Shown here piece after piece: positions 553 through 15,246 of a stretch of DNA of 64,000 nt (position 1 is its first letter; each line of letters opens with the position of its first letter). The position numbers and the translations under genes are program-made. The stretch comes from Thermoanaerobaculia bacterium (lineage in GTDB: Bacteria; Acidobacteriota; Thermoanaerobaculia; Gp7-AA8): NCBI GenBank assembly GCA_036389275.1, contig DASVQE010000052.1, forward strand, positions 33,680 through 97,679. Reading direction: 5' to 3'. The notes under the pieces were generated by a model. The model saw only the letters and a list, made by a program, of their open reading frames with translations. It had not been told where the DNA came from and ran no database searches.

Positions 553-3500
553 GTGCCAGTGAAACGCTTCTTGAGCCCAATCCGCCTTCTTTCGTTCGCC
601 TGTTCAGTCGTTACAATAGTCGGGTTTGCGCCTTCGGCACGCGCAATCTGTGAGGCCGGATCGAGCCTTCCGGGTGTCACGCTGAACTATTCGGGACCGG
701 ACACCTTCGGGCACGGCACGCTGATGATCGGATATTCGTTTCCGAATACCGATGGCCCCCAACAACGGACCGTTCACCTGGTGTCGGATGATTCCCTCGT
801 CGCTTCCATCAGTCCCACTGAGGCCAGCGGTATCTGGACGCTCCCCTTCAACTTTACCTGCCTGCGTGGGGGATCACACTACGTAAAGGCACGCGCCGTC
901 GCGTGCAACGGGTGGAGCAAGGCTGATTTCGAGCGGTGGAGCAACGCCGTGACCGCCGACATTGTCAGCAGGCCTACGGCAAACCCCACGTACTCGGGCC
1001 CCGATGAATTCGGTCACGGCACGCTGACGGTCGATTACAACTTCCCGAATACCGATAGCGCCAGCCAGCGTGCGATCAATGTCGTCTCCGATGACCAATT
1101 GATGGCGGAGTTTTCGCCGACGTCGCAGAGCGGGACGTGGACGATTCCGTTCGACGTCACGTGCTGGCGCAAAGGGCAGCACTACATCAAGACGCGAGCC
1201 GTATCGTGCAACCACTGGAGTGATCCGGACTATGAGTATTGGAGTGCTCCCATCAACATTGATATCGACAGCCGGCCGGAAGCCACACCAACCTACAGCG
1301 GACCCGACGAACTAGGCCACGGCACGTTAACGGTTGCGTACAAATTCCCGAATACGGCCGGTGCTAATCAACGGGTGATCCATGTCGTTTCCGACGACCA
1401 GCTGATCGCCGAGTTCTCGCCTCCAACGCGAACCGGCACGTGGACTCTGCCATTCAACGTTACCTGCATGACCGGAGACCATTACATCAAAACGAGAGCG
1501 GTTGCCTGCAACCATTGGAGCGATCCCGACTTCGAGCATTGGAGCGACGCGATCAATGTGGCGCCTGACCATAAGCCATCAGCACAGATCACCGATGTCC
1601 GGAAAAACGAATCGGGTGTCTGGCAGGCGATCGTTCACTATCATTTCCCGCAAACCGACAACGCTTCGCAGCGCTCATTGAGATTGGAGTGGCAGGATAA
1701 CGGCGCGCTGATCGGAACCGTGGCGCCGGGCCAGGTAGAGGGAGATTGGGTGGTGGATCTTCCGGCGTGCGTTCCGGGCGAGCTCACCACCCTCCGGGTC
1801 ATTGCAATCGCGTGCGGCGACCAGCGCAACTCGTCGTCGAGAGCCGCCGGACTTCCTGAATGCGACAACGCCTGCTCGGTCGAGTGCGCCGACTGTTTTT
1901 CGAAACCGATTCGCTCGACGAACGGCAACATGCGGTTCAGTGACGCCGACCCGCTTCCCGGTGAGATCGTCACGCCGCTCGCGCGAACGTACAACAGCCG
2001 CGATCCTCGCATCGGTCGTTTCGGTCGGGGTTGGTCATCCATCTTCGACGCTCACCTCACCGCTCGCGGTGGCGCAGACGGCGGCGAGACCGTCCGGCTC
2101 ATCACCGCGACCAGTGACGTTTACGCGTTCGAGCAGAGTGGCGGCGCCTACGTGCAGACGTACCCGGCCGGCGAACGCGTTCCGAGCGTCCTCACCTACG
2201 ACGCCGCGCGCGGCCTCTTCGTGCATCGTCATGGCGGGAGCGCTACCGAAGAGTTGTACCGCGCCGCGGATGGCCGTCTGGTGGGAGTGTCCTCACGGCG
2301 CGAGGCCCTGCAGGTAGAGATCGCCTATGCCACGGATGCGACGCCGCAGCGCGTCTCCAACTCGCGCGCGAACTGGGCCTGGACGTTCAGTGTCGACGCC
2401 GCCGGACGTATAGCGCAAATCGCCGTAGAAGGAAGATCCGACCTCACCTGGACGTATGGGTACGACGCCGATGGCAACCTCACCACGGTCACCGCGCCGG
2501 CGAACGCGCCCTGGCGAACATACACCTACGGTGCTGCCGGGATGCTCGCCGCCTACGACGCGCAGCAGCGCTTGATCGAGTCCCATGCGTACGATTCGGA
2601 CGGTCGCGCCGTCAGCACCGCAAGCGATCGCGACGATGTGAGCGCTGTCTCGTACGGCCTTGCCGGACGCGTCGCCGGCGAGCTCATGACACGCGTCACC
2701 TACACCTCCGGGCGGACGACCGACTATTACAGCCGTTTTGTCGGCGGCAAGATGCGCACCGTCCAGGTAGACGGTTCCTGCGACTGCGGGACGGACGATA
2801 CTGTCTATGGCTACGACACGAACGGCCGCATTATTCGCGAACAGGATGCGCGAGGCTACATCACCGTCCGCCAGTTCGACGAGTCGAGTGGCAGACTGAT
2901 CTCCGTCGGGACCTCGTACCGTCCCGTTTCCTGTGATCCGGCAACCGATTCGACACGCTGCCGTCTCGACCCGTCCACAATTCTCACGACCACTCTGCAG
3001 GCCACGGCGGCGACGGACGTCGTGCAGTACACGTACGGCGACGCCGCATGGCCGGACCGGCCGACGTCGATGACGCGCACCAGTGTTCTGGCGCCCGCGC
3101 AGGTCACCACGACGTCGAGCGTCTTCGATCCGTCTACAGGCGTCACGTTGCAGGAAACGATCAGCGGCTGGACGAACCGCGGCGCCGGCAATGTGGTGGA
3201 AACCCGTACGACGACCCGAGCGCTTTACGACGGAGCGGAGACGGCGCTCTTCGATCCCTGCGGAGGAGCGTCATGCGCGTTCTCGCCTAGCTGGCTGGCA
3301 TTGCCGCAACCGTCGAAGCAGATCAAGCTCGTCGACGGGCCGAGGGACGGTGTCAGTGATCAGACGACACTCGTTTACTATCCGGTACACGCCTCCGTTC
3401 CTGCGCTCCTCCGCGGCCGGCTCGCGGCCTCGCGTAATGGCGCCGGGCATATCGTCCGCTTTGAAGCCTATGACGTCTTCGGCAACGCCACCCGAGTGGT

Positions 3501-6500
3501 GGACCCGAACGGCGTGGCCACCGAGACGGCCGCCGATGCGCTGGGCCGCGTACTGACCACGACGATCAAGGCGACCTCCGGCTGCGACACGACGATCGAC
3601 CCGCTCTGTGCCGATGATCTCGTGGCAGCACGGACGTACGCGCTCAGCTCCGGCGCCCTGGCGAATACCCGCCTCCCGGGAGGAGGTGTGAGCGTGTACG
3701 CCTATGACGTACGCGGGCGCATCACCATGCTGTCCCGCGGTGCTGACCTGAACGATCTTCGCGAACGTCTCGAATACGAGTACGACGACACGACCGGCGA
3801 GAAAAGGCTCGAGCGGTGGCTTTCTTATGAGAATGGTGGTTGGGTTGAGAAAAAGCGTGAGACCTACCACTACGACGCGGTCGGAAATCTTTCGGAAGTC
3901 GTTCATGGCGACGGCACGGCCGTGCATTATGCGTACGACGCGCAACGTCACGTCGTAGGGGTGCGCGATGAGCGGCACTCCGCGAATAACACCACTTACG
4001 CATATGATCCCGCGGGGCGCATTTCAACCGTAACCCAGACATTGGGAAGCGGCCAGGTCGTAACGCGGTATGCGTATGACTTGCGCGGGAACCTCGCCAG
4101 CGTGACCGATCCGAACGGCAATGTCACGACGTACAAATACGACGATTTCGGGCAGCTGCTGCAGCAAACGAGTCCCGTCACCGGGACCACGACCTATGCT
4201 TACGATCCTGCCGGCAACCTCACCCGCACGGTAGACGCGAACGGGAGCGTGTCGGTGAGATCATTCGATGCGCTCGGGCGTGTCATCAGCGCCACGTCAT
4301 CACGCCTGAACGCAACGGATTCGGTTCAATGGACGTACGACGAGAATCCGAATGGCGTCGGGCGTCTTTCCGGATTTACTGACCCGTCCGGCCAGGCGAG
4401 TTTCCGATACGACCGCCGCGGGCTGTTGTTGCGCGAGACTAAGCAGTTCGGCGCCGAGACTTATGTCACTACATACGGATACGATGCGGACGGGAACCGC
4501 AACCGGATCGTCTACCCCAGCGGCCGTACAGCGACCTACAGCTTCGATTACGCCGGGCGCCCGCTCACCGCGGCGGTGAACGGTGCGCCATTGGTTCTCT
4601 CTGCGTCGTACCTTCCGTTCGGTCCTGTCACCGCTACCACCTATGGGAACGGAACGGCACGTACCGCCACCTACGATGCGCGCTATCAGCTCCTCACGAA
4701 CGCGCTGGCAACCGCCAGTGGAGCGATTGCTTCTTACACCTACACGCATGACGCAGTCGGCAATGTCACCGGCATCCACGACGTCCTGGCACCGGGTTAC
4801 GACCGTACCTTTGGCTACGACGATCTCAATCGCCTCACCTCGGCCAATACGGGCGACGCTCTCTGGGGCACGGCTACATACTCCTATGACCCGATGGGAA
4901 ACCTCTTGACGTCGTCCCTCGGTTCTCTCACGAAGACGTTCAACTATGCCAATGCGTCGCCCAAACTGACCGCAGTCGCAACCAACGGCGCGCCGCAGGC
5001 GGTGACGTATGACGCGGCCGGTAATGAAACCGTGGTCGGGCCGGAGCAGTTTGTCTACGGCCCGCGTAATCTGCTGGTGCGCAACGACAACATCGAATAC
5101 GCGTACGACGCGCGCGGCGTGCGCGTGACGCAGAAAAGTGATGTCGTACGCGTGGCTTCACTGTCGCTGAACGCTTCGAGGATTCGTGGCGGCGAGGCGG
5201 GTGCGTTCACGATTGCACTGAGCGGTCCGGCGCCTGCGGGCGGCGTCGTCGTCGCGGTGACGAGCTCGAGTGCCCTCGTCACCGTGCCGAGCACGGTAAC
5301 GATTGCAGCCGGCGAAACGAGTGCCTCCGTCCCGTTCACGTCCGTTGCGGTCTCACAAGCGACGACGGTTCACCTGACCGCCACTCACTTTGGCGATATT
5401 TCGCAGGATCTCGTCCTGACGCCATCGTGTTTAGTCGATCGCGTGGAGATCCATGAAGCGTCGGTCACGGGGGGCCAAGCCGCGCATGGTGTCGTGTACC
5501 TCTTCGAGCAGGCGCCCACGGGCGGCACCGAGGTGACGCTTGCGTCCAACGCTGGTGCCGCGGTGGTGCCGCCGAGCGTGGTCATCGCCGCGGGTCAGTC
5601 CTCCGCGGAGTTTCCGATCGCGACCACTCCGGTCACTGCCGACACGACCGCACGAATCACCGCCTCACTCTGCGGTTCGGTATGGAGCGAATTTTCTGTC
5701 GCGGCACCCTCACTCGCCACGCTGGTTCTGCAACCCGCGGCCGTGGAGAGCGGCGCGGTGACTACGGCCACCGTTACGTTGACCGGCGCAGCACCGGCCG
5801 GCGGGATCGTGGTCCTGACATCCACAAGCGACTCGACGCTCGCTACAGTACCCTCCAGCATTGTGATTGCGGCGGGCCAGTCGGCCGGATCGTTTGCGGT
5901 GACCACGCGGCCGATCGACGAACCGGCGTCCGTCATTGTGTCGGCGTCGCGAGGCAACGTCACGAAGAGCGCGACCCTGGACGTCGCACGCTGCACGTTC
6001 GACGACGTTCCGCCGACGCTCCCGAGTGACGAGATCGTCTGGTTTGACGATGCACCGCCTGCAGGCGCAGTGCTCCACGAGTCCTGGACGTGGGACACCA
6101 CGAAGAAGGCGAGCGGTGTTCAATCGATGGACATTCCGCTTGCGAACGGATACAGCGGAAGGTGGTTTGAAAACGCTACGAATCGGCTGGTGGTCGCGGC
6201 AGGCGATCGGCTCTTCGTCTATGTTCTGGTCGACCCTTGCCACCCGCCGCGGGAAATTATCCTTGGCTGGAGTGACGGCGCCGTCGATCAACGTGCCTAT
6301 TGGGGCGAGGACCTCCTTCCTTTCAGTGCGGCCGGAACAGGCCGCGTGCGCATGGGCGACGTCCCCGAAGGCGGTGAATGGGTCCGTCTCGAAGTGCCGG
6401 ACTCGACGCTTCATCTCGCGGGCCGTTCGCTCAGTGCGATGGCGCTCGATATTTACGGCGGCCGCGCATGGTTCGATCGCGCAGGACGGATTGCGTGCAA

Positions 6501-9498
6501 TCCAGCTCCGGCCCCTCCTCCGGTATTCTTTCCGGACAATGAGAGTGTCTGGTTCGACGACGCCGTGCCTGCCGGCGCGATCACTCACGAAGTCTGGACC
6601 TGGGATACGGTCCAGCGTGCGAGCGGCACTGCGTCTCATGTAGTGAACGCACCAGCCGGCGCCGGCGGTCACTGGTTTGAAAATGCCAGTACGACGTTGA
6701 CCGTCCTTCCGGGTGAGGCGTTGTTTGTCTACGCGTACCTCGATCCCTGTAATCCGCCTCGGGAGATCATGCTCGGATGGAATGACGGGTCATGGGAGCA
6801 CCGTACCTACTGGGGCGAGAACCTGATGCCCTACGCCTCGCCCTCGGGGATGTTTCGCATCGGCGATCTGCCGCGGCAGACCGGTTGGGTGAGGCTGGAA
6901 ATGCCTGCGGATTTCGTGAACCTCGCGGGCAAGACGATCAGCGGCATGGCCTTTGACGTCTATGGTGGCCGGGCGTGGTTCGATCGCGTCGGTAAGATGA
7001 GTTGTGAGCAACCACACGCGGCAACTCCTCCACCTGCATCCGACGAAGTTCTGTGGGTCGACGACAGTCTGCCCAGCGGCGCCGTCGTAACGGGTTCATT
7101 GGAGTGGGACTCGGCCGAGCAGGCGTCGGGCAACAGTTCGTTGGTGGTCCGCGGCAACCCCGGAGCGCAAGGAGTCTGGTTCTGGCAAGCGACTGCGATG
7201 ACGCCCTCGGCCACGGAAAACCTGATGGTTCATGTCCTGATCGACCCATGTGATCCACCTCGCGAGATCATGGTGGGTTGGTACGACGGGTCGTGGGAAC
7301 ATCGAGCCTACTGGGGCGAAAACCTGATGCCGTATGCGACGCCCGCAGGAATGACGAAGTTCGGCGAAGTTCCTGTTGCGGGCGAGTGGGTGACACTGGA
7401 AATCCCGGCGTCGGCGCTGAACCTGTCGCAGCATGCAATTTCCGGAATTGCGCTAGACGTCTATGGCGGACGCGTGTGGTTTGACAGAATCGGGAAGCGT
7501 GCCTGTGCGCCGACGATCGCTGCGCCTGCGCCGTTCGCACCTGGTGAGGAAGTGTGGTTCGATGACAGCGTGCCATCGGGTGCGGTCACTCACGGCGAGT
7601 GGACTTGGGACGCCACGCAGAAAACCTCCGGCTCGTCGTCGCACACATGGACGTCGTTTCCGGAATGGAGCTGGCACTGGTTCGAACAGGCCGGCAGCGG
7701 GATGACGTTGAACGCGGGCGACAACTTGTTCGTCTACGCGCTCATCGACCCATGTGATCCTCCGCGCGAGATCATGCTGGGGTGGTTCGACGGCACGTCG
7801 TGGGATCACCGCGCATATTTCGGTGAGAACCTGATGCACGTCGCACCGGCCGCTGCCGAATTCGGAATGGGCGCAGTACCTGAAGGCGGGCAATGGGTGC
7901 GTCTGGAGGTACCCGCAACGATCGCCAACCTCGCAGGCCGTACGGTGACTGGAATGGCGTTCGATGTCTTTGGCGGGAAGGTGTGGTTCGACCGTGCCGG
8001 TAAATATTCGTGCGCGGCGGGCGTCGCTCCGCGCCCGGCCGACGACACGGAAGAGCGGGTGTGGGTCGAGGACCGGGTGCCTAACGGCGCGCGTTACTAC
8101 GGTCCGTGGGAATGGGACACAAACCAGAAAGCTGGTGGCACCAGGTCGCACTTCACGCCGCCGCTCGTCGGCTGGACCTGGCATTACTTCGAAGAGGCAA
8201 CCGAAACGCCGACGGTCGGAGCCGACGACGAATTGTTCGCCTGGGTCCTGGTCGACCCGTGTGACCCGCCGCGGTCCATCATGCTCGGTTGGAATGACGG
8301 GACGTGGGACCACCGCGCCTACTGGGGAGAAGACCTCTTCCCCGTTGCCTATGGCGGTCTGAATCGCGTGCGTGTGGGTGACGTGCCGGTCGCCGGACAA
8401 TGGGTGAAATTGCGTGTTTCGGCAGAGAGGATGGGTTTAGCAGGCAAGACCCTCAACGGAATGGATTTCGACACCTGGGGCGGAAAGGTCTGGTTCGACC
8501 GCGCGGGCGCTGAGGAGCAGAATCTGGAGCCGATGAGTGCGGACGCATTGCCCCCTCCGATGACATCGTCTACCGCCGACCGGCGCGTGACGTCTGCGTC
8601 GACGACGGAGCGAACGCTCCACTACCTCTACTCCCCTGAGCTCTCACTCATCGCCGAAACCGATTCAACAGGAAATCCAAATGGCGCCGTGACGTGGGAG
8701 TACATCTGGTTCAACGGCCAACCCCTCGCCCAAATCGAAAACGCCACCGGTGCGATCGCCTGGTACTTCAACGACCACCTCGGCACCCCACTCCTCCAGA
8801 CGGACGCCGCATCAAATGTGATCTGGCGCGCCGAATACGAACCATACGGCACCGTCCACACCCTGCGCGAAGGCCCCAATCGCCACCAACCCCTCCGTTT
8901 CCCCGGCCAGGAAGCGGAGGACCTCTCGGACCGGTCGTACAACATCTTCAGGTGGTACCGGGCGGGTTGGGGGCGGTATACGCAAGCGGATCCGATTGGC
9001 GTCGTAGGCAGAGAGTTTCCGTACGCGTCCGATAATCCCATCTTTAACAGCGACATGCTCGGCCTACTGGATACGGGAGCTCTGTTGCGGCGTCCCGTCA
9101 CGCGAGCTGTTTGTGAAGTCGCTGGCGAAACTGCCGGGTGGCTTGCAGGACGCGCGGCAGGGCTGATCACGATGCTGCTCAGCGCGAGTGATGCTAACCC
9201 AGTCGAATTTGAGGATCAGATTCGCCAGTGCGACACGTGCGTTGAGCGCCGCCGACAATGTGACGAGTTAAACACTGCCGTAGAAGAGGCGAAACGGCAT
9301 GTCGGAGATCTCGGAGCTTGCCGGGCCGGCATGAGCCGTTGGGAACTGCAGCAACGATATTCCGCCTGGCTTGCGCTGGCGACAGCCCGCGCTCGGCGCG
9401 ATGTGAAATGTTGGCGCGGTGGAGATTCAGGTCATCAGCAAGCGCAGGCGGATGCATGGTCGAATGTCGGCAATTGCGCGAGATTGTTGGGACTGTGA
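553..9498 (+). CDS. giant secreted RHS/YD-repeat polymorphic toxin (2981 aa) with a C-terminal toxin domain of unknown family
   Basis: Signal peptide [31 protein letters not shown]. An RHS start motif [13 protein letters not shown] is followed by many YD repeats such as [95 protein letters not shown] and [30 protein letters not shown]. The C-terminal RHS-associated core reads [34 protein letters not shown]...[41 protein letters not shown]. Start may instead be the in-frame GTG at 559, because GGAGG at 549-553 lies 5 nt upstream of it. Confidence 0.9.
   Translation: [2981 protein letters not shown]
650..1840 (+). repeat. four tandem ~110-aa N-terminal repeats of unknown family inside the 553..9498 CDS
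   Basis: Repeating block (T/N)YSGPD(T/E/L)FGHGTL...(Y/N)FPNT(D/A)...QR.I.VVSDD(S/Q)L.A.FSPT..SGTWT(L/I)PF(N/D)(F/V)TC..G.HY(V/I)K(A/T)RAV(A/S)CN(G/H)WS(K/D)(A/P)D(F/Y)E.WS seen at about 650, 980, 1310 and, degenerate, 1565. Two conserved Cys per unit. Confidence 0.7.
2020..5150 (+). other. RHS/YD-repeat shell region of the 553..9498 toxin
   Basis: Dense YD-repeat signature (Y.YD..G(R/N)L) throughout, beginning at FGRGWSS. Confidence 0.85.
5150..5990 (+). repeat. three tandem ~90-aa Ig-like/beta-sandwich repeats inserted after the YD region
   Basis: Three copies: [67 protein letters not shown], then [64 protein letters not shown], then [65 protein letters not shown]. Confidence 0.7.
6037..8510 (+). 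repeat. five tandem ~168-aa repeats (about 505-bp period) of an unrecognised Cys-containing domain
   Basis: Units start at about 6037, 6546, 7050, 7553 and 8060. Consensus read by eye: VWFDD..P(A/S)GA....W.WD......SG..S.........HWFE.A......G(D/E).LFVY.L(V/I)DPC(D/N)[9 protein letters not shown].DGSW(E/D)[11 protein letters not shown].......G..P..G.WVRLE.PA..LNLAG.T.(S/T)GMAFDVYGG(R/K)VWFDR(A/I)GK..C. Confidence 0.8.
8600..9063 (+). other. RHS repeat-associated core domain of the 553..9498 toxin, with a degenerate terminal cleavage motif
   Basis: [86 protein letters not shown]...[61 protein letters not shown]. The first DPIG motif is present (D-P codons at 8989-8994). The usual terminal DPxGL is replaced by SDMLGL. 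Confidence 0.8.
9064..9495 (+). other. C-terminal polymorphic toxin domain (~144 aa), family not recognisable
   Basis: [143 protein letters not shown]. No nuclease, deaminase or ADP-ribosyltransferase catalytic motifs that I can identify by eye. Confidence 0.5.
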
Positions 9499-9971
9499 AT
9501 ACGCTCCAGTTGATCGAAGAAGCCTTCAGTCATCGACGCATGCCGGTGTTGTTCTTGGTTTCGGAACAGTTGGCGATGCACGAACGTGACGACGTCATGG
9601 ACTTCTGGGGAAAACCTTGGTCGTGTGTAACCGGCTCACAACTTGAGAAGCGCTTTGACGCGATATTTTGGTTTACTCCAGAAGCGTTCTGCTACTACTT
9701 GCCCGGAATCTTCAGCGCAGGCATCAAGGAAAATAAGCCATGGCTGATCGTCAATCACTCTCTGATCAACATGCTGGATCGAAGCCCCGATCCTGGCTTT
9801 TGGGATGACTTTTTTTTCGCACGGTGGTCGAAACTTACCGCGAGAGAGTGCGAGGCGACTCAGGCTTGGATCCTATGGCTTTCCTCGTGTGACGACGGCT
9901 CTTACTCGGAGAGCGCGCTCACGCGCGCCTTCGATACGCTCGACCTACTAAAAGAACGAAAAACAGCGTGA
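9495..9971 (+). CDS. candidate immunity protein for the upstream toxin (about 159 aa from GTG 9495; alternative ATG start at 9540)
   Basis: The supplied ORF 9318..9971 extends back into the toxin CDS. The GC drop starts at about 9495, and a GTG at 9495 overlaps the toxin TGA (GTGA, 9495-9498), which is classic translational coupling. Protein VNTLQLIEEAFSHRRMPVLFLVSEQLAMHERDDVMDFWGKPWSCVTGSQLEKRFDAIFWFTPEAFCYYLPGIFSAGIKENKPWLIVNHSLINMLDRSPDPGFWDDFFFARWSKLTARECEATQAWILWLSSCDDGSYSESALTRAFDTLDLLKERKTA. Markedly AT-richer than flanks: codons such as ttt, aaa, att, tta versus a 70% GC background. Confidence 0.55.
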   Translation: MNTLQLIEEAFSHRRMPVLFLVSEQLAMHERDDVMDFWGKPWSCVTGSQLEKRFDAIFWFTPEAFCYYLPGIFSAGIKENKPWLIVNHSLINMLDRSPDPGFWDDFFFARWSKLTARECEATQAWILWLSSCDDGSYSESALTRAFDTLDLLKERKTA

Positions 9972-10609: not shown

Positions 10610-11647
10610 ATGGCTGTGTTGGCGAAGACGGCGCGGCGGGTTGGGGTTGCGCTTGCGATTTCGGGGGCGGCTGGCGTGCTGTTGATGGGTGGGTGGGTGA
10701 ATCGCTCCAGTCTTTTCCTTCGCACGGCTATCATCGGGCTCGCCGCGGCGGCTGCCTTCTCGCTGTTCGAGGTGTGGCCGCGCGGGCTGCCGCGGTGGTT
10801 TCAGCGGTGGGTGTTGCAGGTCGTGGCGGTCGGGGTTTGCATTCCGGTCACCACGCTGCTGATTTACATCCTCTCCACCGCGCCTGGCGCGCCGCAGTTC
10901 TGGGAAGACAAGGTCCGCATGGATGGGTGGATGATGCTGACGTTCCTCGGACTGTTGATCGCGCCGTGGACGGCGCTCGCGGCGATCGTGCGGCAGAAGG
11001 AAGCGTTCGCGCGCGAGCAGAAGCTCGCCTTCGCTCTCGAGCGGAGTGAGCTCGAGCGCGAGGCCCTCGACGCGCGTTTGCATCTCTTGCAGGCGCAGGT
11101 CGCGCCGCACTTTCTCTTCAACACGCTCGCGAACGTGCAGGAGCTCGTCGACGCGGGCTCGCCGCACGCGTCGACGGTCCTGCGCAGCCTCGTCGCGTAT
11201 CTGCGCGCGGCCGTGCCGCTGCTTCACGAGCCGGCCGCAACGATCGAGCGCGAGCTCCGCCTGGTGCGGCCGTATCTCGAGCTGATGCAGATGCGCATGC
11301 CCGACCGCCTGCAGTACGCCATGCACGTCGATCCGCGGGCGCTGACGATCCGCTGTCCGCCGACGACCGTGCTCACGCTGGTCGAGAACGCGGTGCGGCA
11401 CGGCATCGATCCGAGCGAAGAAGGTGGACGCATCGACGTCGACATCGAGCGCCGCGGCGAGCGGTGTCTGGTGCGCGTCACCGACACCGGCGCCGGCCTG
11501 CGCGAATCGCCGCAAGGCCTCGGCACCGGCCTGACCACGCTGCGCGAGCGGCTGCGGATGATCTTCGGCGACGCCGCGCGCCTCAGCCTGATGAGCGCCG
11601 CACCGCGCGGCGTGACCGTGGAAGTGGAGATGCCGGCCGAGACATGA
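10610..11647 (+). CDS. LytS/AlgZ-family sensor histidine kinase (membrane-bound, PF06580-type His_kinase plus HATPase_c)
   Basis: N-terminal hydrophobic helices. HFLFNTL motif in QAQVAPHFLFNTLANVQELV is diagnostic of the LytS/YehU/AlgZ 5TM-type kinase phosphoacceptor region. ATPase N and G boxes in LVENAVRHGID...RVTDTGAGL...GTGLTTLRERL. Confidence 0.85.
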   Translation: MAVLAKTARRVGVALAISGAAGVLLMGGWVNRSSLFLRTAIIGLAAAAAFSLFEVWPRGLPRWFQRWVLQVVAVGVCIPVTTLLIYILSTAPGAPQFWEDKVRMDGWMMLTFLGLLIAPWTALAAIVRQKEAFAREQKLAFALERSELEREALDARLHLLQAQVAPHFLFNTLANVQELVDAGSPHASTVLRSLVAYLRAAVPLLHEPAATIERELRLVRPYLELMQMRMPDRLQYAMHVDPRALTIRCPPTTVLTLVENAVRHGIDPSEEGGRIDVDIERRGERCLVRVTDTGAGLRESPQGLGTGLTTLRERLRMIFGDAARLSLMSAAPRGVTVEVEMPAET

Positions 11648-14299: not shown

Positions 14300-14421
14300 G
14301 CCGCAGTAGTAGTCCTTCCGTCACTCTGCCCTTACGTCGACATTGACATCCGGAGAAGCGGCAGTTTAGTCTGACCGTCCTTTTCCCCAGATCCGAACTT
14401 TTAACGACAACCGGAGTCGCT

Positions 14422-15246
14422 TTGCACGATCTCTCTTCGCGCGTCTGCCATCTCTGTCTCTTCGTCGCCGTGGCGATGTTCGCCGCCGGCGCGCTCGCGG
14501 CGCCGCCGCTGTTTCCCGAGCCGCTGCATCTGACGCGCGTCGTGGAAACGCCGTTCGGCGGAGCGACCACGATCGAAGAGTTCTGCCAAGGAAACCGGAT
14601 CGCGACGGTGATCGGTATGCGCACGATCGTCGTCGACTACGACAAGCAGACGGTGACCGAGATCTCGCGCGCCGACGCAACGTACAGCGTCACCTCGTTC
14701 AGCGACGTCGCCGCGGCCACCGCGCCGTCGGCGAAGCGCAGCACGCTGGCGACGAAGAGCAGCGGCGCGAACGACGAGCTGCGCACGATCGCGACGCCGG
14801 CGGGCCGCGACCGCGGTCATTACTTTGCCGTCGAGCCGAAGGCGCACGCGCACATCCGCAAGATGGAGATCGGCGTGGACGAGCGCGTGGCCCTTTCCCG
14901 CGAAGCAGTCGAAGCGCTTCTCGGCGCATCGTTCCCGAACGCGCCGACCGACGAAGCGCAGCTCGCGCTGCGCGCTTCGGCTGAAGGCGGAAAACCGGCC
15001 GGCGACGCGCGCGCGAAAAGCGCCGGCGGAGAGTCGCGCTTCGCGCTGCCGCTCGAGCAGCGCGTGCAATACGACGCGGGCGGCGGCAAAGAGTTCGTCG
15101 TCACGAACCGGGTCACGCGCGTCGGGAACGAGCTCGCGCCGAATGCGCTCGCGGCCATTCCGCCGGGCGCGCACGCGGTCGAGTCGCATTTCCTCCGGAC
15201 CCGCCGCGAGCTCGACGAGCTCGACCATCTTCCGCCGAATCCGTAG
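14422..15246 (+). CDS. small secreted hypothetical protein (274 aa) immediately upstream of the 9232-aa gene
   Basis: Signal-peptide-like N-terminus LCLFVAVAMFAAGALAAPP. No recognisable domain. Ala- and Arg-rich C-terminal half. The stop at 15246 is 14 nt before ATG 15261, suggesting co-transcription. Confidence 0.5.
   Translation: MHDLSSRVCHLCLFVAVAMFAAGALAAPPLFPEPLHLTRVVETPFGGATTIEEFCQGNRIATVIGMRTIVVDYDKQTVTEISRADATYSVTSFSDVAAATAPSAKRSTLATKSSGANDELRTIATPAGRDRGHYFAVEPKAHAHIRKMEIGVDERVALSREAVEALLGASFPNAPTDEAQLALRASAEGGKPAGDARAKSAGGESRFALPLEQRVQYDAGGGKEFVVTNRVTRVGNELAPNALAAIPPGAHAVESHFLRTRRELDELDHLPPNP

Follow-up and report, generated by a model that had tools for sequence, protein, structure and literature searches.

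How can an Rhs protein accommodate some 1,150 residues between most of its YD-repeat shell and its RHS-associated core, and what might such an insertion do for the toxin that carries it? The question is raised by a gene in a 64,000-nucleotide (nt) stretch of the genome of a Thermoanaerobaculia bacterium (Acidobacteriota; contig DASVQE010000052.1, positions 33,680 to 97,679), hereafter the window, where an uninterrupted open reading frame (ORF; nt 553-9498, + strand) with a GTG start codon encodes a 2,981-residue Rhs/YD-repeat polymorphic toxin. The reading that we favour, and regard as fairly probable, is that of a canonical Rhs cage in which one hairpin loop has been expanded into an external binding arm of eight domains.

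The insert occupies residues 1532-2685 and consists of three immunoglobulin (Ig)-like domains followed by five repeats of about 166 residues (Table 1). An initial annotation had placed an insertion of about 1,100 residues at nt 5150-8510, and this region is indeed in open frame and, as residues 1533-2653, matches no domain of Pfam or NCBIfam; the insertion is real, its length being about 1,150 residues once the trailing linker is counted. The five large repeats were also borne out, with starts at W1830, W2000, W2168, W2335 and W2504 (a spacing of 167-170 residues), a common ending in WFDR.G, 49-54% identity to unit 1 and 44 invariant columns in their alignment. Several of the motifs that had been called invariant are only nearly so, as WFDD is WVDD or WVED in two units, and HWFE is RWFE, VWFW or HYFE in three. 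Each unit matches a profile made from these same five units with an E value of 1e-83 to 1e-91, far beyond chance, and the profile finds no match in the other ORFs of the window. The three domains of about 94 residues that precede the units are likewise genuine repeats of one another.

The position of the insert was established by comparison with solved Rhs cages. When residues 1532-2684 were taken out of the protein and the resulting construct was aligned to solved cages, one unbroken alignment ran across the junction, to residues 878-1144 of the Rhs-family structure 8h8a, whose equivalent hairpin lies at about residues 990-1000, and to residues 1000-1289 of RhsA of Pseudomonas protegens (7q97). 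The insert is thus a loop that interrupts the shell cleanly, between one hairpin and the next. After the return linker the YD sequence resumes (ERTLHYLYSPELSLIAETD...VTWEYIWFNGQPLAQIE...IAWYFNDHLGTP), and two YD-type hairpins, spanning about 50 residues (2686-2734), separate the insert from the PF03527 match, with about 75 residues before the TIGR03696 match. Thus the insert, which had been described as lying between shell and core, does precede the core, but it lies among the final turns of the shell and not precisely where shell and core meet. In six relatives (P0261, P0262, P0275, P0279, P0304 and P0305), which are 45-51% identical to the query over a best local alignment corresponding approximately to the last YD region, the same flanking motifs, Y.YDGRGVR(t/v) and (R).(S)LYTPEL.LLAE, are joined by only 13-19 residues. 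These short junctions argue that the cage is canonical and that the insert is a loop-out from it.

Relatives were found with the last YD segment and the start of the insert as query, and the matches were classed by local profiles. At the insertion site are 40-90 residues in P0265, P0273, P0276, P0306, P0335 and P0340, about 190 residues in P0280, and about 260 residues with one Ig domain in P0263. Ig domains alone are found in others (three in P0241, five in L086, six in P0242, and seven in P0236, P0323 and L083), L088 has two units and no Ig domain, and three Ig domains are followed by three, four and three units in the metagenome-assembled genomes (MAGs) L001, L002 and L003, respectively. 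The closest loci belong to Thermoanaerobaculia MAGs; L001 and L002 carry that label, and L003 is an uncultured member of the Acidobacteriota. Among the 150 best representative proteins, about 13 full-length Rhs proteins have the order YD repeats, three Ig domains, two to five units, core, so that homologous Rhs proteins do carry the same insertion, a point that the initial annotation had proposed to check. Two-unit homologues of the P0150 or P0171 type have a length of about 2,300 residues. The site, a hairpin of the cage that lies two hairpins before the RHS-associated core, is a hot spot for insertions and accepts from none to at least eight domains. Units are inserted elsewhere among the YD repeats in P0191 and P0234, and a Pyrinomonadaceae Rhs protein (L076) has an F5/8C domain, three Calx-beta domains, a LamG domain and one unit directly upstream of its core.

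A separate observation concerns a homologous Rhs gene of one MAG (L006 and P0251, on contig DASQJY010000057.1) that is apparently split into two ORFs, one with the YD part and the beginning of Ig1, the following one with the remaining Ig region and four units. The split could represent a frameshift, a pseudogene or a sequencing error.

The number of units at the hot spot changes by tandem duplication. In P0113, P0132 and P0232 the units of one protein group together, which shows that such duplication has been lineage-specific there. The units of the window share 47-53% identity among themselves and up to 56% with units of other proteins, a matching divergence that marks them as old copies; a recent tandem duplication in the window was considered and rejected, as the units are no closer to one another than to units of other proteins. 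A metagenome scan for unit-number polymorphism in close relatives returned nothing above 60% identity. In L002, an orphan cassette downstream of the main gene (nt 14321-15123) shares 88.8% DNA identity over 806 nt with the main gene (nt 10662-11464), the shared stretch comprising the last half-unit, the linker and the core, after which the orphan diverges into a different toxin, and in L083 an orphan consists of three Ig domains and a core. These orphans indicate that the relatives have the classical toxin-swapping arrangement of Rhs loci and that its homology arms extend into the inserted domains; no orphan cassette is present in the window.

What, then, are the inserted domains? An AlphaFold2 model of unit 2 (residues 1995-2163, from an alignment of 90 sequences) is all-beta, with a mean predicted local distance difference test (pLDDT) score of 94.8 and a predicted template modelling (TM) score (pTM) of 0.87. 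Its Foldseek matches include sandwich domains of glycoside hydrolase family 85 (GH85), carbohydrate-binding modules (CBMs) of families 22, 28 and 30, MAM domains and gingipain adhesin domains, with TM scores of about 0.5 for CBM22, CBM28, MAM and the gingipain domains, and the top fold matches are non-catalytic CBMs (CBM8, 30, 11, 6, 29 and 22) or accessory sandwich domains of enzymes. As modelled, the 166-residue unit is an autonomous jelly-roll sandwich of the CBM/lectin type. The suggestion that the repeat might be a new lectin-like or adhesion fold therefore holds for its lectin- or CBM-like character and fails for its novelty, since the fold is the common one of CBM sandwiches. That the units might be divergent YD hairpins was ruled out by the confident model of an autonomous jelly-roll, together with their occurrence in non-Rhs proteins.

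The sequence family, as opposed to the fold, did prove to match no recognised domain. Single units find nothing in Pfam at E <= 10 and nothing in NCBIfam at E <= 1, and the unit profile finds only chance matches among the sequences of the Protein Data Bank (PDB), such as a peptidyl-tRNA hydrolase at E of about 0.2. The unit shares with the beta-sandwich CBMs (CBM8, CBM30, CBM11, CBM6 and CBM22) a common jelly-roll fold at 6-14% sequence identity, and differs from them in that its profile matches no CBM model and no PDB sequence, in having a signature of its own (L..VY..DP..PP.E.M..W.DG.W.HRAYWG), in including a subfamily with a probable disulfide between N-terminal linker and domain, and in not being attached, in the sample scanned, to glycoside hydrolases.

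For the Ig-like domains, a structure model was needed because their profile matched PDB sequences only weakly (the luminal domain of cystinosin, E 1.4e-3). The model consists of three tandem beta-sandwiches with about eight strands each (pLDDT 93.9) and matches tandem Ig arrays, among them titin I67-I69, NCAM Ig1-3 and SbsB at E values of about 1e-9 to 1e-10 and also HYDIN-like proteins, which upholds the assignment made in the initial annotation. The Ig domains of the window reach no curated Pfam cutoff, the best being Ig3 against Big_6 (E 0.075), and for related Ig repeats the best match, to Big_1 (E 1.2e-4, in 3 of 32), is also below threshold. The triplet is a very common and likewise mobile module, 89 of its 120 best matches being non-Rhs secreted proteins. 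It occurs in subtilases, PQQ/WD40-type propeller proteins, multicopper oxidases, deacetylases and others, and its consensus (P0237-P0355) reads ...L.P.SV.GG...TGTVTL..PAP.GG..V.L.SS....A.VPASVTVPAG.TSATF.V.T..V...T.VTI.A...

The unit, too, is widespread among bacterial phyla. Homologue searches returned matches shorter than about 1.75 times the query (under 300 residues for a query of 170, and at most 1,225 for a query of 701), and because such length-limited matches cannot reveal a domain in long proteins, an exhaustive search of representatives was needed. The five-unit profile matched 2,487 clusters (at 50% identity) at E <= 1e-3, 874 of them at E <= 1e-30, and 343 stretches in species-representative genomes. 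Hosts include Acidobacteriota, Nitrospirota, Verrucomicrobiota, Planctomycetota, Caulobacter, Pseudobacteroides and others, and the unit occurs in hundreds of non-Rhs proteins, where its partners are Big_7, F5/8 type C, PKD, Kelch, NHL, fn3, PA14, Calx-beta, subtilase and PSCyt/PSD1 domains. Partners of this kind are typical of a module that binds surfaces. To judge from these sequences, the unit is a mobile and widespread extracellular module, and it is absent from the domain libraries that were searched.

A cysteine pair gives a further indication of where the arm would reside. A Cys follows every unit of each protein except the last, and Cys1814 of Ig3 precedes unit 1 of the window; the 'terminal Cys' that had been assigned to the repeat is therefore absent after the last unit, being instead the first residue of the next unit, in its N-terminal linker. 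Of the 392 unit instances in which a DP...P motif could be recognised, all 94 that have a Cys in DPC also have one no more than 26 residues upstream, whereas only 32 of the 298 that lack the DPC Cys do so (Fisher p = 3e-63), the covarying linker Cys lying 12-18 residues upstream of the unit. Most of the wider family has DPA or DPxNPP and no such Cys pair. In the one subfamily with DPC, the linker Cys and the DPC Cys probably form a disulfide, which in unit 2 would join Cys1982 to Cys2066, and by which the proline-rich linker is stapled to the domain. Such a disulfide would require the arm to fold in an oxidising compartment, which fits both the apparent Sec signal peptide at the start of the protein, by which the arm is probably exported, and a location outside the cage.

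Taken together, these features suggest how the protein may work. The cage would close normally around the Ntox16 toxin tip, and the arm would loop out of a hairpin two hairpins upstream of the core, with the three Ig-like domains serving as spacers, the five stapled jelly-roll modules as ligand binders, and a flexible linker of about 33 residues returning the chain to the cage wall. The arm most likely binds, in multivalent fashion, a ligand on a surface, probably a glycan, either on target cells or on the envelope of the producer, a role like that of the putative receptor domains on the shell of mosquito SGS1. The YD sequence of SGS1 is interrupted by a beta-propeller, a CBM, a lectin domain and a wedge domain, which lie on the outside of its solved shell, and the beta-propeller of TcB has been cited as a receptor domain on the shell of Tc toxins (PMC9935623). 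The window protein resembles SGS1 in having non-YD domains inserted within its YD-repeat sequence and differs from it in that SGS1 has single domains at several sites rather than eight in tandem at one site beside the core; the window protein is also bacterial, uses another domain family, and has a classical toxin tip. The presence of lectin domains within RHS repeats had been recorded by 2012, with the proposal that they enhance contact with the target (PMC3482391); the architectural principle and the proposed role are shared here, whereas the unit belongs to none of those families.

Binding to target cells is ranked ahead of binding to the producer's own surface, in which the units would hold the cage on the cell that made it, by way of its own exopolysaccharide (EPS) or outer-membrane glycans, ready for contact-dependent delivery. 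This alternative we consider rather unlikely, although the fold and the partner domains would be the same in either case, such a role was proposed by Zhang et al. for some carbohydrate-binding domains of Sec-exported toxins (PMC3482391), and no recognisable outer-membrane or type VI secretion system (T6SS) attachment module was found in the Rhs protein with Pfam or NCBIfam. In the scheme of PMC3482391, anchors are N-terminal, and it is the lectins embedded in repeats or close to the toxin that were proposed to contact targets; moreover, the four N-terminal repeats of the window protein could already serve as an anchor.

It is very unlikely, in our estimation, that the units are instead catalytic, acting for example as small jelly-roll polysaccharide lyases or hydrolases that clear capsule or EPS. 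The idea draws on W.HRAYWG, a polar and aromatic motif that is nearly invariant across the whole unit family, as some jelly-roll enzymes use a catalytic His, Arg and Tyr. At about 155 residues, however, the unit has the size of a CBM and not that of the known jelly-roll lyases or of GH16 enzymes, its top fold matches are non-catalytic modules or accessory sandwich domains, and five tandem copies fit avidity better than catalysis.

Hardly any credence can be given to the proposal, made in the initial annotation, that the upstream YD region is not the cage of the toxin or that the cage topology is radically different, nor to a version of it in which the 168-residue units form part of the cage wall. 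What speaks for it is the presence of about 1,150 residues between most of the shell and the core. Against this stand the contiguous alignment of the insert-deleted flanks to solved cages, the insertion-free relatives in which 13-19 residues join the same flanks, the confident folding of the unit alone as a jelly-roll and not as YD hairpins, and its occurrence in so many non-Rhs proteins. In addition, the shell without the insert (residues 451-1531 and 2686-2840) amounts to about 1,240 residues, close to the 1,261 positions of the NCBIfam RHS core model, which is matched only partly. The premise that the YD shell is always continuous was itself too strong, as the shell of SGS1 contains inserted domains (PMC9935623). 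Least credible of all is an assembly or annotation artefact joining an Rhs gene to an unrelated adhesin gene: the window does derive from a single metagenome contig, but the reading frame is open through both junctions, the guanine-plus-cytosine content is even at 0.61-0.66 throughout, the unit-to-core or Ig-to-core junction is found by itself in orphan cassettes of relatives, and a chimera is very unlikely because both junction motifs and the domain order recur in L001-L003, which are MAGs assembled independently, and in about 13 of the representative proteins.

Several points nevertheless weigh against the reading of a canonical cage with an exported, glycan-binding arm. Closure of the cage around the toxin and the exterior position of the arm are predicted from the alignment and by analogy. 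Carbohydrate is a default guess as to the ligand of such a fold; glycoside hydrolases are absent from the 25 most frequent (of 50) partner families in 58 non-Rhs hosts, which are Ig, PKD, F5/8C, Kelch, NHL and subtilase domains and the like, a Glucodextran_B domain being present in one unit host and a lipase domain in another one, so that 'carbohydrate' is read from the fold. The p value for cysteine covariation ignores kinship among the sequences, and the disulfide is deduced from that covariation, the upstream Cys lying outside the model of unit 2. The signal peptide was judged by eye and is present only in the longer, GTG-initiated version of the protein; in the source annotation (JGI metagenome 3300034173, in which the window is part of the 151,613-bp contig Ga0334925_000017) the gene starts later, at about nt 724, and encodes 2,924 residues, 57 codons fewer, without a signal-peptide-like N-terminus. 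Because that N-terminus exists only in the longer version, the public gene call is probably truncated. Finally, the candidate immunity protein encoded downstream has only a sub-threshold match to DUF6714 (E 1.4e-4, 22.4 bits, cutoff 27).

Outside the insert, the protein has most of the attributes of the Rhs toxins with solved cages, such as RhsA, 8h8a, Tse5 (8cp6), Tse15 (8uy4) and TcB-TcC. DUF6531 is a common N-terminal domain of Rhs proteins and forms the plug of the cage. It is followed by RHS/YD repeats up to about residue 1495 (PF05593, E 6.5e-53 over 12 stretches; TIGR01643, E 1.1e-27), and the core is recognised by PF03527 (residues 2735-2769; 34.7 bits, cutoff 27.9) and TIGR03696 (residues 2762-2838; 49.1 bits, cutoff 32.5). 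Autoproteolysis-type motifs, ADPIGV...SDMLGLL, lie at about residues 2810-2840, in keeping with the DPxG...LGL motif of the solved proteins, and a polymorphic toxin, a small downstream gene and, here in relatives, orphan toxin cassettes complete the likeness. The window protein differs from these toxins in its probable Sec signal peptide and the absence of a PAAR, VgrG or prePAAR N-terminus, in the eight-domain insert of about 1,150 residues in place of a hairpin that has about 4-19 residues in solved and insertion-free proteins, and in the homology arm of its relatives' orphans, which reaches back into the inserted domains. No PAAR, prePAAR or VgrG module or other T6SS component was found by Pfam or NCBIfam in the Rhs protein, and none was seen among its neighbours.

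Table 1. Features of the Rhs gene, its insert and the adjoining gene in the window
Feature	Position (nt)	Strand	Residues	Details
Putative Sec signal peptide	553..645	+	1-31	MPVKRF...APSARA followed by I; judged by eye
Four N-terminal repeats of ~101 aa	646..1902	+	32-450	YSGPD motif at aa 46, 147, 248
DUF6531 (PF20148)	1903..2118	+	451-522	E 2.7e-9, 37.7 bits, cutoff 24.1
YD-repeat shell, first part	2119..5145	+	523-1531	last hairpin ...IEYAYDARGVRVTQKSD
Three tandem Ig-like beta-sandwich domains	5152..5994	+	1534-1626, 1627-1720, 1721-1814	last residue Cys1814
CBM-like unit 1	5992..6486	+		linker Cys1814, W1830, DPC Cys1896, final WFDRAG at 1978
CBM-like unit 2	6496..6993	+	Cys1982 to G2147	
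CBM-like unit 3	7003..7494	+	Cys2151 to G2314	
CBM-like unit 4	7504..8001	+	Cys2318 to G2483	
CBM-like unit 5	8011..8508	+	Cys2487 to G2652	no Cys after
Low-complexity return linker	8509..8607	+	2653-2685	33 residues, AEEQNLEPMSADALPPPMTSSTADRRVTSASTT
Shell, second part, and RHS-associated core	8608..9072	+	2686-2840	two YD-type hairpins, PF03527, TIGR03696
Ntox16 C-terminal toxin domain	9253..9480	+	2901-2976	26.9 bits, cutoff 25
Candidate immunity gene	9456..9971	+		171 aa; overlaps Rhs stop codon by 43 nt

The N-terminal repeats, between signal peptide and DUF6531, are Cys-rich (...YSGPDxFGHGTL...FPNTD...QR...VSDD...W..PF..TC...HY.K.RAV.CN.WS...) and are without a match in Pfam or NCBIfam; this part may be a surface-anchoring or secretion-related module of the toxin. 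At the other end of the protein, Ntox16 has been described as alpha-helical and of unknown activity, with no immunity family listed in 2012 (PMC3482391). Should the 171-residue product of the downstream gene turn out to be the immunity protein, its family would be the first of this kind to be connected with Ntox16.

Further downstream are a two-component pair (His_kinase, PF06580, and LytTR), a DUF4386 protein, an esterase and two giant ORFs. The giant ORFs (nt 15261-42959, 9,232 aa, and nt 43013-63190, 6,725 aa, both on the + strand) fill most of the remaining window, and the first contains CarboxypepD_reg, Big_5, SpaA-like and LVIVD repeats. Neither ORF contains the CBM-like unit or the Ig type of the arm. 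The region resembles an island of genes for giant surface proteins.

Because the arm is spliced in two strands upstream of the core, which plugs the cage and carries the autoprotease, a mechanical role can also be imagined, in which multivalent binding of the five units to a target surface would pull on the strands that hold the plug and so link receptor engagement to cage opening and toxin release. We regard such a trigger as distinctly unlikely; if it were correct, the hot spot would be an exchangeable 'receptor socket' on T6SS-independent Rhs cages, and the jelly-roll family, with its roughly 2,500 clusters, a new class of surface-recognition module.

The Rhs cage model is not overturned by these results. 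The decorated Rhs cage was already known, and what is new is an arm of unusual size, placed at a defined hot spot and composed of two common modules that had escaped annotation; in the papers located, we found no description of the hot-spot position or of the series from no domains to eight. How Sec-exported, T6SS-independent Rhs toxins find and enter their targets is poorly understood, and the clade described here, mostly of Acidobacteriota, provides a natural series at one cage loop, from no insert through Ig domains alone to Ig domains with two to five modules, that points to where a receptor-binding function can be grafted onto an Rhs cage. Two common extracellular modules, the jelly-roll unit of many phyla and the Ig-like triplet, are missing from Pfam and NCBIfam, and annotating both would help to interpret many of the giant surface proteins of soil bacteria.

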